Position numbers and translations under genes: made by a program
Shown here: piece after piece, positions 41,475-62,675 of the stretch
Numbering within the stretch: position 1 is the first letter of the stretch
Layout of the letters: every line of letters starts with the position of its first letter
Notes under the pieces: generated by a model
The model's input: the letters and a program-made list of their open reading frames with translations, nothing else
Databases searched by the model: none
What the model was told of the DNA's origin: nothing
NCBI RefSeq assembly: GCF_003790525.1
Contig: NZ_CP033635.1
DNA: 64,000 bases
Strand: one strand, 5' to 3'
From: Escherichia coli
GTDB lineage: Bacteria > Pseudomonadota > Gammaproteobacteria > Enterobacterales > Enterobacteriaceae

Positions 41475-44009
41475 TTAATTACTACCAAACATATCCTTGA
41501 TCCAACCGGCTACACCGTCGCTGTCTTTCTGCTCTTGCTGAGCAGGTTGCTGTTGCGGCTGTTGCTGCGGCTGAGAAGACTGATCAAACGGATTGCCTGA
41601 CGGCTGCTGCTGCATCTCACTCTGCTGGCACAGCGATTGCGGATCGCTGGTCCAGACCGGCAAGACACGCATACCACCGCTGCAAACAAAGTTGCCGTCG
41701 TAGTCCACGCCCATATCTGCAATATCTTCCGGCGGAACAAGATTCAGCGGTGTTGGCGTCTGGTTAGCCAGATAACGCTGATAAATCGACATTGCCCCGC
41801 TGGCTCCATACAGTTTGGTCGGTTGGTTGTTATCACGGCCTACCCAGGTGATGGTCACCGTGCTGCCGTCAATGCCCGCAAACCAGGTATCTACGTTATT
41901 GTTGGTAGTTCCTGTTTTCCCTGCCAGATGCAGGTTCGGGTATTTCGCCCCAAGCTGACGCCCCGTACCACGTTGTACCACCTGCTGCATGGTCCATAGT
42001 GTCAGATACGCCGCCTGCGCCGGAACCGCGCGTTCCGCCTGCGGGAAGCTCTGATACAGCACTTTGCCATCTTCCGCAATTACCGAACGCAGCGCAGAAA
42101 GCGGTGCACGGTTACCGCCGCTGGCGATAGTCTGGAATGCCTGCGCCACTTCGATTGGCGTTAAGTTCAACGCCCCCAGCAGCATCGCCGGAACCGGATG
42201 CAGCTGATCTTTCGGCACGCCCAGTTTAATCCAGGTCTCCGTAACCGCAGGCAGCCCCAGCGCCATCCCCAGATTCACCGTCGGCACGTTCATCGAACGG
42301 GTCAACGCATCCACCAGCATCACTCTGCCACTTTCGCTATAACGACGGTCATCGTTCTGCGGTGACCAGACCTGGCCATTCGGCTGACGCAGCGCGATGG
42401 GCGCATCGGCAATCCACGTGTTCAGGCGATAGATTTTCGGCTGGCTTAAGGCAGTCAGATAAGTCGCTGGTTTTGCGAGGGAACCAATCGAACGACGCGC
42501 CTGCATCGCACGGTTGTAGCCCGCAAACTGCGGCTCAGAACCACCGACCATCGCACGAACTTCACCGCTAAAGCGGTCAACAACCACAATCGCGGTTTCA
42601 AGATCGCTCAACTTACGCTGTTTTTTCAGTGCCGGAATGCCTTCCACGGCGGCTTTTTCTGCCGCGTCCTGGGCCACCGAGTCAAAGGTAGTGAAGATCT
42701 TCACGCCGGAGAGATCTTTTACCTTATCGCCTAATTTAGCCTGAAGCTCCTGGCGCACCAGTTGCATAAAGGCTGGCTGAGGAGAGATCACCCCACCGCG
42801 CGGCTGAACACCCAGCGGACGTGCACTCAACATGTCATAGAGTTCTTGATCAATAATCTGTTGCTGTTGCAGCAGACGCAGTACCAGGTTACGTCGCTCC
42901 AGCGCCAGTTTCGGGTTACGCCACGGGTTGTAGATGGACGCCCCTTTCACCATACCCACCAACAGCGCCTGCTGATCGAGGCTCAATTCTTCTACCGGGC
43001 GACCAAAGTAATACAAGCTCGCCAGCGGGAAGCCGCGGATTTCGTTGTCGCCGCTCTGACCGAGATACACCTCGTTCATATACAGCTCAAGAATACGGTC
43101 TTTGCTGTAACGCGCGTCCATGATCAGCGCCATGTAGGCTTCGTTCGCTTTACGCCAGTAAGAACGCTCGCTGGAGAGGAACAGGTTTTTAACCAACTGT
43201 TGCGTCAGCGTACTCGCCCCCTGCACCGTGCGTCCGGCAGTCAGGTTTGCCAGCACCGCACGTCCGATTGAGTAGAGACTGATCCCATCATGCTCGTAGA
43301 AATGACGGTCTTCTGTCGCCAGCAAAGTATCCACCAGCAAATCCGGGAAACCACTGCGCGGCACAAACAGACGCTGCTCACCGTTTGGTGAAGAGATCAT
43401 AGTGATCAGGCGCGGATCAAGACGGAAGAAACCGAACTGACGGTTGTTCTCCATATTGACGATCGTCGCCAGATGATCGCCATCAAAGGTCAGACGTGCA
43501 CGCACCTGCCCTTCTTTACTGTCCGGGAAATCAAACGGACGGCGGATCATCTCAATGCTGTTGGCCTGCACGGTAAATTCGCCAGGACGGGTCATTTTCG
43601 ACACCTGACGATACTGGGTCGCCTCCAGCAGATTCACCATCTCGTTCTTGCTGATGGTCATGTCTGGCTCAAGGTTGACCATCCGGCCATAAACTGCCGC
43701 GGGCAGTTGCCAGACCTTGCCATCAATACGGCTGCGAATTTTTTGATCGAGATAAACGCCGTAAATGGCGATCAGCACGGCAAAAACGATAGCCAGTTTT
43801 AGCAGCAGCCATAGCCAGCCGCGTTTGCCACGAGGCTTACGCCCTTTGCCTTTGCCCTTACCTTTGCGCGGCATCGGTTCTTCATCCTCATAGTCATCAT
43901 AATCGTCGTAATCATCGTCATCTTCGTAACGACGACGGCTTACCTTTTGTTTGACCGGACGCGTCGGTTTCCCTTTGCGTCCAATTGGCTCGCGGTCATT
44001 CCCGGCCAT
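41475..44009 (-). CDS. mrcB: Penicillin-binding protein 1B (bifunctional glycosyltransferase/transpeptidase)
   Basis: ORF track gives 849 aa ([10 protein letters not shown]...); known 844-aa PBP1b begins [15 protein letters not shown]; acidic/basic N-terminal cytoplasmic tail and Q-rich C-terminus present. Confidence 0.93.
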
Positions 44010-44052
44010 GCTTTTTCTCCGCAATATTCAGGCGCAAAAGCCCGATTTTCTG

Positions 44053-59077: not shown

Positions 59078-59872
59078 ATGAAACCAACCACGATTGCTTC
59101 ATTGCAGAAATGCAAGCAGGACAAAAAACGTTTCGCAACCATCACCGCTTACGACTATAGCTTCGCAAAACTGTTTGCCGAAGAAGGACTTAACGTCATG
59201 CTGGTAGGCGATTCACTGGGCATGACGGTTCAGGGGCATGACTCCACGCTACCGGTTACCGTTGCCGATATCGCCTATCACACCGCCGCTGTGCGTCGCG
59301 GCGCGCCAAACTGCCTTCTGCTGGCTGACCTGCCATTTATGGCGTATGCCACGCCGGAACAAGCCTTTGAAAACGCCGCAACGGTAATGCGTGCCGGAGC
59401 CAACATGGTCAAAATTGAAGGCGGTGAGTGGCTGGTGGAAACCGTACAAATGCTGACCGAACGTGCCGTTCCAGTTTGTGGTCATTTAGGCCTAACCCCA
59501 CAGTCAGTAAATATTTTCGGTGGCTACAAAGTCCAGGGGCGCGGCGATGAAGCGGGAGATCAACTGCTCAGCGATGCATTGGCATTAGAAGCTGCTGGGG
59601 CACAGCTGCTGGTACTGGAGTGCGTGCCGGTTGAGCTGGCAAAACGCATTACCGAAGCACTGGCGATCCCGGTTATCGGTATTGGCGCAGGCAACGTCAC
59701 TGACGGGCAAATCCTCGTGATGCACGACGCGTTCGGCATTACCGGCGGTCATATTCCTAAATTCGCCAAAAATTTCCTCGCCGAAACGGGCGACATCCGC
59801 GCGGCTGTGCGGCAGTATATGGCTGAAGTGGAGTCCGGCGTTTACCCGGGCGAAGAACACAGTTTCCATTAA
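59078..59872 (+). CDS. panB: 3-methyl-2-oxobutanoate hydroxymethyltransferase
   Basis: 264-aa [36 protein letters not shown]..., recognised as PanB. Confidence 0.95.
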
Positions 59873-59883
59873 GGAGTGACGTT

Positions 59884-60735
59884 GTGTTAATTATCGAAAC
59901 CCTGCCGCTGCTGCGTCAGCAAATCCGCCGCCTGCGTATGGAAGGTAAGCGCGTGGCGCTGGTGCCCACCATGGGTAACCTGCACGACGGCCATATGAAG
60001 CTGGTTGACGAAGCCAAAGCCCGCGCCGATGTGGTCGTCGTCAGTATTTTCGTTAACCCGATGCAGTTTGACCGCCCGGAAGATCTGGCTCGCTACCCAC
60101 GCACCTTGCAGGAAGACTGCGAGAAGCTAAACAAACGTAAAGTGGATCTGGTTTTCGCTCCCTCGGTAAAAGAGATCTATCCGAACGGTACAGAAACCCA
60201 CACCTATGTCGATGTTCCAGGCCTTTCCACCATGCTGGAAGGTGCCAGCCGTCCAGGACATTTTCGCGGCGTTTCGACTATTGTCAGCAAGCTTTTCAAC
60301 CTGGTCCAGCCAGATATCGCTTGCTTCGGTGAAAAAGATTTTCAGCAACTGGCGCTGATCCGCAAAATGGTTGCTGATATGGGCTTTGATATTGAGATTG
60401 TCGGCGTACCGATTATGCGCGCCAAAGACGGTCTGGCGCTGAGTTCCCGTAACGGTTATCTGACGGCGGAACAACGCAAAATTGCGCCGGGTCTGTACAA
60501 GGTCTTAAGTTCAATTGCCGACAAATTGCAGGCTGGCGAACGGGATCTCGATGAAATTATTGCTATTGCCGGGCAAGAACTGAATGAAAAAGGTTTCCGT
60601 TCCGATGATATTCAGATTCGCGATGCCGACACCTTGCTGGAAATCTCTGAAAACAGCAAACGAGCGGTGATCCTGGTAGCCGCCTGGCTTGGCGATGCTC
60701 GCCTGATCGACAACAAAATCGTAGAACTGGCGTAA
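59884..60735 (+). CDS. panC: Pantothenate synthetase
   Basis: 283-aa ORF from [40 protein letters not shown]..., recognised as PanC. Confidence 0.95.
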
Positions 60736-60816: not shown

Positions 60817-61032
60817 TTAGTTAGAGTTAATTAGCTTATCAATCTCTGCAAGAGATAAAGCTGTCACCTCTGCAACGTCTTCCCGAGACATTCCTTTACT
60901 CAGAAGACGCTGGGCCAGTCTTACCTTCTGGAGTCCCTCTTTATATCCCTTCTGAAATCCCTTCTGAAATCCCTTCTCTTCAAACCACTGCGCCAACGTC
61001 TGCCAGGTTTCTCTCCGTGTCTTTATTTCCAT
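60817..61032 (-). CDS. Small ORF (71 aa) paralogous to the C-terminal tail of YadD/RpnC; candidate free-standing RpnS-like protein
   Basis: ATG at 61032 preceded by AAGGGA; MEIKTRRETWQTLAQWFEEKG-(GFQK repeats)-LLSKGMSREDVAEVTALSLAEIDKLINSN parallels the yadD C-terminus ...TLAQWFEEKG-(RQEV repeats)-FLSKGMSREDVAEMANLPLAEVDKLIS; DNA of the two 3-prime ends is clearly homologous. Expression is unproven. Confidence 0.45.
   Translation of the reverse strand: MEIKTRRETWQTLAQWFEEKGFQKGFQKGYKEGLQKVRLAQRLLSKGMSREDVAEVTALSLAEIDKLINSN
60946..60978. repeat. Short tandem 12-nt repeat inside the 71-codon ORF
   Basis: CCCTTCTGAAAT repeated in tandem, encoding GFQKGFQKG on the minus strand. Confidence 0.5.
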
Positions 61033-61100
61033 ATGTTCCCTTAATTATCTGGTCAGTTAACAATAACAATTATCTGGCTATAACTGATAATGCAGATAAC

Positions 61101-62021
61101 TTAGCTAATCAGCTTATCAACCTCAGCAAGAGGTAAATTTGCCATCTCTGCAACGTCTTCCCGAGACATCCCTTTACTCAGAAAACGCAGGGCGAATTCC
61201 TGTCTTACTTCCTGTCTAACCTCTTGTATTACCTCCTGTCTTACCTCCTGCCTTTCCTCCTGTCTTCCCTTCTCTTCAAACCACTGCGCCAGCGTCATCA
61301 TAGACTCCCCTCCCGTTTCCCTGTCTCTCAGCACACCATAAAACAAATCCGCTTGTTCAGTATGACCGCGTTGCAGCATATAGTTTTGCATGGCAACTAA
61401 CTGACTTCCGCTAGTGTACCCTTCGTCTATCAGCGTGACCAGTTGCTCCAGCAATAACATTAAGTCGCGTTGGCGAATATGTTTTTGCAGCAGTTCGAGA
61501 ATCGCAATCCGCCGATGTTGCATGATTTCGTCATCCGGTGTGATAGTGATATCCACCAGCGGGAAAGGACTGTTATAGACGCGTCGCGCCAGCTCCGGCG
61601 AGTAAAACATATCAAACCAGCACATTGAGAGTGGATAAGGCGTGGCCTCGCCCTGATAAAACAAAATCGGCACCACCAGCGGCAGCTTATCGTGATCTGC
61701 CTCCAGATGCCGGTGCATGGCAGCAATAGAATAACGCATCATGCGAAAGGCCATTTTTTTGTCCGGCTTGCTTTGGTGTTCAATTACAACATGTAGATAG
61801 CCCGTATTACCCTGCATTTGCACGGAATAGAGCACGTCAGTGCTGTGCCCTTTCAGGCTTTCTTCAATAAAACTCCCCGACTCAAGATGCAGCGTGTCGA
61901 GGTCACACAGTTCGCGTAGTTCCGCTGGCAAATGGATATCCAGAAAGTCACGAGCCGTTTCCGCATGCATTAAAAATTGTTTAAACACCGCATCATGCGG
62001 TGTGGTACTCGGTGCATCCAT
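61101..62021 (-). CDS. yadD: Rpn-family (YhgA-like, PD-(D/E)xK) recombination-promoting nuclease
   Basis: 306-aa ORF, MDAPSTTPHDAVFKQFLMHAETARDFLDIHLPAELRELCDLDTLHLESGSFIEE..., recognised as YadD (RpnC); AGGGA Shine-Dalgarno before ATG at 62021; located between panC and panD. Confidence 0.85.
   Translation of the reverse strand: MDAPSTTPHDAVFKQFLMHAETARDFLDIHLPAELRELCDLDTLHLESGSFIEESLKGHSTDVLYSVQMQGNTGYLHVVIEHQSKPDKKMAFRMMRYSIAAMHRHLEADHDKLPLVVPILFYQGEATPYPLSMCWFDMFYSPELARRVYNSPFPLVDITITPDDEIMQHRRIAILELLQKHIRQRDLMLLLEQLVTLIDEGYTSGSQLVAMQNYMLQRGHTEQADLFYGVLRDRETGGESMMTLAQWFEEKGRQEERQEVRQEVIQEVRQEVRQEFALRFLSKGMSREDVAEMANLPLAEVDKLIS
61196..61272. repeat. Imperfect 12-nt tandem repeats inside the yadD 3-prime region
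   Basis: About six imperfect copies of CCTCCTGTCTTA-like units, encoding RQEERQEVRQEVIQEVRQEVRQE on the minus strand. Confidence 0.6.
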
Positions 62022-62294: not shown

Positions 62295-62675
62295 ATGATT
62301 CGCACGATGCTGCAGGGCAAACTCCACCGCGTGAAAGTGACTCATGCGGACCTGCACTATGAAGGTTCTTGCGCCATTGACCAGGATTTTCTTGACGCAG
62401 CTGGTATTCTCGAAAACGAAGCCATTGATATCTGGAATGTGACCAACGGCAAGCGTTTCTCCACCTATGCCATCGCGGCAGAACGCGGTTCGAGAATTAT
62501 TTCCGTTAACGGTGCGGCGGCCCACTGCGCCAGCGTCGGCGATATTGTCATCATCGCCAGCTTCGTTACCATGCCAGATGAAGAAGCTCGCACCTGGCGA
62601 CCCAACGTCGCCTATTTTGAAGGCGACAACGAAATGAAACGTACCGCGAAAGCGATTCCGGTACAGGTTGCCTGA
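62295..62675 (+). CDS. panD: Aspartate 1-decarboxylase
   Basis: 126-aa [41 protein letters not shown]..., recognised as PanD (pyruvoyl-dependent; G-S cleavage site present). Confidence 0.95.

Follow-up and report, generated by a model that had tools for sequence, protein, structure and literature searches.

The window, by which we mean the whole 64-kb stretch of Escherichia coli DNA analyzed here, carries two minus-strand open reading frames between panC and panD (Table 1), and the 1,401 bases around the repeats that these frames contain match E. coli SMS-3-5 (NC_010498.1) at 100% identity, where the RefSeq annotation lists panC, rpnC and a hypothetical or 'RpnC/YadD family' protein. The larger frame, rpnC (yadD), encodes a member of the Rpn family, with a score of 279.7 bits against the NCBIfam model TIGR01784 (cut-off 52.1), and a Pfam search places the YhgA-like nuclease domain PF04754 in its N-terminal part at E = 1.7e-87. 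Its last 66 residues match the C-terminal end of TIGR01784 (E = 4e-10), and the smaller frame of 71 residues matches positions 212–273 of the same model (E = 5e-11). Within rpnC, and in the same reading frame, a Shine-Dalgarno-like GGGAGGGGAG stands three nucleotides upstream of an ATGATG, from which a protein of 66 residues beginning MMTLAQWFEEKG would be translated; site and start are identical in sequence in the window and in K-12. An internal start with its own ribosome-binding site, giving a small C-terminal protein, is the arrangement expected of an RpnL/RpnS gene, and by its sequence rpnC appears to be one. The GGGAGGGGAG element is probably functional, judging by the K-12 data of Zhong et al. 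(2023), and both predicted small proteins are presumably expressed in the window strain.

Table 1. Genes and sequence features of the panB–panD region, in window coordinates
Feature	Position	Strand	Remark
panB	59078-59872	+	
panC	59884-60735	+	
Small ORF, 71 aa	60817-61032	-	Free-standing RpnS-like; corresponds to 'rpnCSs' of Zhong et al. 2023
Small-ORF array, KGFQ KGFQ KGYK EGLQ	60928-60975	-	Tandem Repeats Finder span 60945-60977
Two perfect AAGGGATTTCAG units of the small ORF	60952-60975	-	
Spacer, rpnC stop to small-ORF start, 68 nt	61033-61100	-	
rpnC (yadD), 306 aa	61101-62021	-	Full-length Rpn nuclease (RpnC-L); RefSeq name rpnC in SMS-3-5
Internal ORF rpnC-S, 66 aa, MMTLAQWFEEKG..., same frame as rpnC	61101-61301	-	Predicted intragenic antitoxin
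rpnC array, six 12-nt / 4-aa units	61194-61265	-	Tandem Repeats Finder span 61198-61270
In-frame ATGATG	61296-61301	-	
GGGAGGGGAG-N3-ATGATG	61296-61314	-	
Shine-Dalgarno-like GGGAGGGGAG, 3 nt upstream of internal ATGATG	61305-61314	-	Read from sequence; identical in K-12
YhgA-like PD-(D/E)XK nuclease domain of RpnC, N-terminal, aa 7-207	61401-62003	-	Pfam PF04754
panD	62295-62675	+	

The smaller frame follows rpnC directly, on the same strand, is homologous to the rpnC tail and occurs in some strains only: of 5426 complete E. coli genomes, 1552 cover at least 80% of its length and about 70% lack it; on these sequence features it would be the rpnCSs of Zhong et al. The spacer that separates it from rpnC holds an RBS-like AAGGGA site 6 nt before the ATG as well as two copies of the direct repeat CCAGATAATT, and a 51-nt core of the spacer is the same in every one of the 13 two-copy loci compared, of which the window is one. 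Scanning for promoters and terminators returned no minus-strand consensus promoter for the small ORF or for an internal rpnCS transcript, and no terminator.

Both C-terminal segments contain a tandem array with a period of 12 nt, as the original prediction had stated. Tandem Repeats Finder reports 2.8 copies at 100% match in the small ORF and 6.1 copies at 81% match, thus an imperfect array, in rpnC, both in frame. Tandem arrays scoring at least 50 number three in the whole window, namely these two and an acidic DDY repeat at the N-terminus of mrcB, and a perfect lag-12 run of 21 nt has an expectation of ~1e-8 in 64 kb of random sequence. Both arrays are real and lie far beyond chance. Read in the minus-strand frame, the rpnC array runs ...LAQWFEEKG RQEE RQEV RQEV IQEV RQEV RQEF ALRFLSKGMS..., and that of the small ORF runs ...LAQWFEEKG FQKG FQKG YKEG LQKV RLAQRLLSKGMS..., or, in the other phase, LAQWFEE-KGFQ-KGFQ-KGYK-EGLQ-KVRLAQRLLSKGMS. 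The segments on either side of the repeats are conserved between the two copies, again as predicted, with 30 of 33 nt alike on the 5' side and 79 of 93 nt on the 3' side. The repeats set in at residue 13 of RpnCS, or at residue 11 with the KG included, and in the small ORF at residue 20; both proteins have what is expected of an RpnS, that is, four-residue repeats beginning 8–20 residues past the initiating Met in a number that varies between strains of a species. The interval 60946-61272 of the original prediction takes in both arrays, the 68-nt spacer and the coding sequence between them.

Genes of this kind have been characterized by Zhong et al. (PNAS 2023, 120:e2307382120, PMC10400941), who found that translation from within rpn genes, K-12 rpnC included, yields small RpnS proteins, and who observed K-12 RpnCS both in ribosome profiling and after SPA tagging. 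The toxic nuclease RpnL is blocked by RpnS; the nuclease activity of Rpn proteins is known from the same work. The crystal structure of RpnAS is a dimeric three-helix bundle in which helix 1 is the dimerization and specificity element, and the four-residue ("dodecamer") repeats located in helix 1 vary widely in number within a species, as they do in every RpnS and RpnSs protein of E. coli (Zhong et al., 2023). RpnCS neutralizes RpnCL only at equal repeat number (their Fig. 4D, on K-12 RpnC): adding one KGIE unit to either RpnCS or RpnCLS alone abolishes neutralization, and matched numbers restore it. The second copy, rpnCSs, occurs downstream of rpnC in certain strains and can disappear through deletion or by becoming fused to the N-terminal domain of rpn, and phage protection was shown only for the plasmid-borne RpnP2 (Zhong et al., 2023, PMC10400941). 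For the window, antitoxin function, repeat matching and phage defense would apply by analogy with this published work. The repeat units, each combining one hydrophobic residue with charged, polar or glycine residues, would lengthen helix 1 of a small three-helix domain that would be present both at the end of RpnC-L and in the RpnC-S made from the internal start, and the helix length set by the repeats would, going by the published K-12 RpnC experiments, decide which RpnS binds and neutralizes which RpnL.

The original prediction took the repeats to form a linker, and here it parts from the structural models, in which the repeats lie inside the first helix of a three-helix domain. AlphaFold2 predicts for RpnCS helices at residues 4–11/14–42, 47–53 and 58–64 (mean pLDDT 84) and for the small ORF helices at residues 6–20/22–45, 50–57 and 61–69 (mean pLDDT 72), with the repeats in long helix 1 (14–42 in RpnCS, 22–45 in the small ORF) and two short helices after it. 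Both models thus show the C-terminal three-helix domain with a long first helix that is expected of RpnS, and the repeat segment is predicted to be helical and not a flexible linker. This arrangement agrees with the RpnAS crystal structure in the description given by Zhong et al. (2023). A sequence search of the PDB with full-length RpnC and with its 66-residue tail did not retrieve this RpnAS structure and returned only weak matches to sigma-factor, ArsR and designed-repeat entries, none of them relevant, and Foldseek, run with the small-ORF model against the PDB, gave nothing at E<0.9, the top hits being TrpR and other helix-turn-helix domains. Neither tail matches Pfam DUF4351 (PF14261), the name used by Zhong et al. 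(2023) for free-standing RpnS in some species, at E<=0.01, with DUF2802 appearing below threshold only; PF27070.1 is precomputed for homologues in the protein database and is absent from our Pfam scan of the tails. PADLOC gave no match at the locus, PADLOC-DB 2.0 holding no Rpn model.

Variation between strains was assessed in 20 complete-genome E. coli loci that were compared individually, in 55 metagenome contigs that share an exact 40-mer with the spacer separating rpnC from the small ORF, and, for the distribution of tail lengths, in a sample of 60 rows spread over the 5,424 matching records. Because metagenome assemblies could mis-size arrays, key cases were confirmed in complete genomes. 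The distance between the anchors on either side of the rpnC array is 77, 89, 101 (K-12), 125 (window), 137 or 149 nt across 18 complete genomes, and the variable segment, taking complete genomes and the 55 metagenome contigs together, measures 13, 17, 21, 25, 29, 33, 37, 41 or 49 residues, always in steps of 4. In the sample the rpnC tail is shorter than that of the window by 48 nt in 2 of the 60 rows, by 36 nt in 4 and by 24 nt (the K-12 type) in 37, is of the same length in 3, and is longer by 12 nt in 6 and by 24 nt in 2; the rows to which no length was assigned comprise 5 of the 60 with ambiguous joined matches and 1 that is truncated. All of the differences from the window found in this sample are multiples of 12. 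As for the small ORF, its variable segment spans 17–33 residues across the two-copy loci and 9–29 residues among database proteins beginning MEIKTRRET or MDIKTRRET. Its KGFQ unit is present in one copy in three loci (L004, L006 and L017) and in two copies in the window, and among protein variants KGFQ-type units number from zero (P0071) to three (P0072, KGFE KGFQ KGFQ).

The 58 two-copy loci yield 31 distinct combinations, and in strain 3150 rpnC is 12 nt longer and the small ORF 12 nt shorter than in the window, leaving the length of the locus unchanged: the two arrays change independently. The proposal that the length of the segment may vary among strains is thereby borne out, the length at each of the two sites differing between E. 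coli strains by multiples of 12 nt; an invariant repeat number, which would have spoken against it, was not seen.

Where units have been added, they are exact copies of a neighboring 12-mer. As can be seen in complete genomes, AAGGGAATTGAG occurs three times in the allele common to CFT073, Nissle 1917 and ABU 83972, four times in ATCC 25922 and six times in strain C25, with 0 mismatches over 743 nt of flanks between these alleles. An extra GAGGTAAGACAG relative to the window is found in strain HB42; strain B1.H1.39 contains three identical GAGGTAAGACAA units, and AAGGGATTTCAG in the small ORF is single or double depending on the strain. Replicate independent assemblies of Nissle 1917, of CFT073 and of ATCC 25922 agree in length, so that the lengths do not stem from assembly noise and the arrays hold steady under laboratory conditions. 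One and the same length is found in all 24 genomes that match the window locus at 99% identity or more, from which it follows that the imperfect RQEV allele of the window is not changing quickly. The repeat number shifts by gain or loss of exact 12-nt units, for which the likely route is slipped-strand mispairing or unequal exchange, mainly between perfect adjacent units. The original prediction had called the repeats prone to slippage, and the unit-exact expansions on identical flanks fit this; slippage or unequal exchange is, however, a mechanism that we infer from such patterns, and the window allele itself is of a single length throughout its near-identical loci. The alleles with exactly 3, 4 and 6 copies on identical flanks support slippage-like change, and constitute a modest addition to prior work.

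The type of unit varies along with the number. The original prediction assigned RQEV-type units to yadD and GFQK-type units to the small ORF, which is correct for the window strain but is reversed in strain 19KM1776 and in the loci of CFT073/Nissle type, with KGIE/KGME in rpnC and RQEV/RQAV in the small ORF. Judged from these sequences, repeat type is not tied to position, the types found in the rpnC tail and in the downstream copy being interchangeable. Whole tails recur in the same manner: in strain EC2202095, which has no small ORF, rpnC has a tail identical to the one that the small ORF carries in metagenome contig L042, and the rpnC tail allele of K-12 is found at the small-ORF position in contig L059 and also in protein P0031. 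K-12 RpnC (Zhong et al., 2023) shares with that of the window its place in the panC–panD locus, the nuclease domain, the internal start with its ribosome-binding site, the placing of its repeats within helix 1 and the 12-nt steps between strains, and differs from it in having the tail KGIE KGIQ QG RQEV SQEF in place of six RQEx units and in lacking the downstream small ORF. The expectation that the 306 residues of the window protein and the roughly 300 of the K-12 protein would reflect a difference in repeat number is right in so far as K-12 RpnC has 300 residues and two fewer four-residue units (−8 residues), but the K-12 tail is also a different allele and its C-terminus is 2 residues longer. 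Since the 3' flank of K-12 rpnC matches the small-ORF flank, and not the spacer, the K-12 tail looks like a recombinant or fusion. Tail segments would then be exchanged between the two paralogous copies in addition to changing by single units.

In 57 of the 58 two-copy loci (30 of the 31 distinct combinations) the repeat segment of the small ORF and that of the resident rpnC tail are of unequal length, and in 58 of 58 they differ in sequence. We considered whether equal lengths are actively avoided, and rejected this on a shuffle test, in which equal lengths in both copies were observed in 1 of the 31 combinations against 1.2 expected (P=0.64), so that the mismatch is no greater than the length distributions of the two copies would produce unaided. 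Taken with the published matching rule, the mismatch in length means that the small ORF should not neutralize the resident toxin. It is conceivable, though we would put it forward only tentatively and think it rather unlikely, that rpnCSs does not serve the resident RpnC as a redundant antitoxin and may be a stored alternative tail cassette, or an antitoxin for a different Rpn allele. Recombination of such a cassette with the 3' end of rpnC would switch the specificity of toxin and antitoxin in one step, and the mosaic tails, the fusion alleles (EC2202095, possibly K-12) and the K-12 tail occurring as a small ORF in L059 are what suggest it. The mismatch and the mosaic tails allow for a role of the downstream copy either as an alternative cassette or toward another allele. 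A close likeness is YpaA (RpnESs), which lies downstream of rpnE: like the window ORF it is small, on the same strand, directly downstream, homologous to the tail, equipped with four-residue repeats of its own and present in some strains only. Of the two, YpaA is the one shown to be expressed, and RpnCSs is mismatched in length to the resident RpnC at nearly every locus.

We consider it highly probable that the locus comprises the C-terminal RpnS module of the toxin–antitoxin/defense gene rpnC followed by a duplicated free-standing copy, rpnCSs, in both of which the repeats lengthen helix 1 and change by exact 12-nt units, and no observation made here speaks against it. Another way to account for the arrays is to regard them as a neutral, slippage-prone spacer of low complexity, joining the nuclease domain to a terminal helix-turn-helix-like motif, the length of which is tolerated and plays no part in specificity. 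The independence of the two arrays, the finding that equal lengths are no rarer than shuffling gives and the stability of the allele classes, both in the near-identical loci and in the replicate assemblies, are all compatible with this, but a single added KGIE unit abolishes neutralization and matching restores it (Zhong et al., 2023, PMC10400941), the segment is predicted by AlphaFold2 to be helical and not disordered, and Rpn proteins from distant phyla show comparable repeat variation (Zhong et al., 2023, PMC10400941). A spacer of this kind is accordingly most improbable. Less probable still, to the point that we give it practically no weight, is a phase-variable contingency locus in which slippage turns rpnC or the small ORF ON or OFF. 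Tandem repeats within coding sequence and a polymorphic copy number would be found in such a locus too, and the likely mutational mechanism, gain or loss of exact tandem units, is the same as in simple-sequence contingency loci; a 12-nt unit, however, preserves the frame at every change, all length classes differ by multiples of 12 and the loci compared include no frameshifted allele. Variation moreover lies between lineages and not between assemblies of one strain. Phase variation was rejected on account of the 12-nt unit, which as a multiple of three brings neither frame shift nor ON/OFF switching.

The remaining alternative concerns the 71-residue ORF alone, which might be a pseudogene fragment in decay, the remnant of a partial rpnC duplication, with the repeats as relics. 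In several genomes PGAP calls the homologous ORF a pseudogene ('missing N-terminus') or a 'transposase', most complete genomes do without it, the minus strand yielded no promoter for it, and its repeat length is unlike that of the resident RpnC in all but one of the two-copy loci. Set against this, the frame reads through from the AQWFEE motif to the normal C-terminal end in 58 of the 58 two-copy loci that reach the ORF; the ATG, the AAGGGA site and the 51-nt spacer stretch are intact and invariant in 13 of 13 window and complete-genome loci; the small-ORF array still expands and contracts in frame; and K-12 produces the analogous YpaA/RpnESs (Zhong et al., 2023, PMC10400941). Decay of the small ORF is therefore improbable in our view, though less so than the neutral spacer, and we retain the reading of a duplicated, free-standing RpnS copy.

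The variation of the arrays, while correctly anticipated, is already known, every element of it being described in Zhong et al. (2023), which is also the only work on RpnC repeats that we found in the literature from 2023 onward. In a widespread toxin–antitoxin/defense family these repeats have been published as the determinant of specificity, and the present locus is a good natural example of this that introduces no new principle. The independence of the two arrays and the interchangeable unit type are modest additions to the published picture, and so is the near-universal length mismatch, which raises the question of what role RpnCSs plays. The main text of Zhong et al. (2023) contains no discussion of the mismatch in length between RpnCSs and resident RpnC. 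The same authors cite as a parallel the TAEL repeats of HsdS. In the HsdS subunits of EcoR124I and EcoR124II, in-frame 12-nt repeats likewise encode four residues of a helical spacer, the copy number of which sets specificity; the proteins are unrelated, and the HsdS repeats set the spacing of the DNA target (N6 versus N7), whereas those of Rpn proteins reportedly act in protein–protein matching.

The rpnC genes of single-copy loci, judging from the sequences of the K-12 type (L001) and strain EC2202095 (L010), look like fusions of an rpnC body to a tail of the small-ORF type, the small ORF being the free-standing copy of the rpnC tail that lies downstream in two-copy loci (see the table for coordinates). 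The small-ORF tail of metagenome contig L042 is that found on rpnC in EC2202095, while in metagenome contig L059 the small-ORF position is occupied by the K-12 tail allele, and the 3' flank of K-12 rpnC matches the small-ORF flank.

Conservation is higher in the spacer separating the two genes than in the coding tails that flank it: one run of 51 nt within its 68 nt does not vary across the 13 two-copy loci compared, the window included, and an exact 40-mer from the spacer matches 55 metagenome contigs. It carries a direct repeat, CCAGATAATT, present twice. No consensus promoter was found on the minus strand.

Coordinates of the features discussed, as positions in the window
Feature	Position	Strand	Remarks
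mrcB	41475-44024	minus	encodes PBP1b
tandem array in mrcB	43882-43929		18-nt period x2.7, score 54
small ORF	60817-61032	minus	71 aa
spacer, rpnC stop to small-ORF start	61033-61100	minus	68 nt
rpnC (yadD)	61101-62021	minus	306 aa

RefSeq/PGAP labels for the small ORF, in the window and at homologous loci L008, L011, L013 and L074, disagree, ranging over 'hypothetical protein', 'RpnC/YadD family protein', 'transposase' and a pseudogene 'missing N-terminus'; an intact ORF of 65-77 aa with an ATG start is present in every complete-genome locus examined. For RpnC itself, a protein-family scan returned as its top NCBIfam match NF007418, 'ISNCY family transposase', at 333 bits, below the 583-bit cut-off, and rpnC bears this name in some genomes (for instance genome match H100). 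Zhong et al. 2023 (PMC10400941) argue against rpn genes being transposases, so the name looks like a legacy mis-annotation. In genome match H187 (NZ_OZ547117.1), whose locus is near-identical to that of the window, an IS1A-family element is inserted at rpnC, and the match falls into two pieces over 2,165 nt versus 1,401.

Besides the arrays of rpnC and the small ORF, the window holds a single tandem array scoring 50 or more, that in mrcB, which encodes an acidic stretch of 17 residues at the PBP1b N-terminus.
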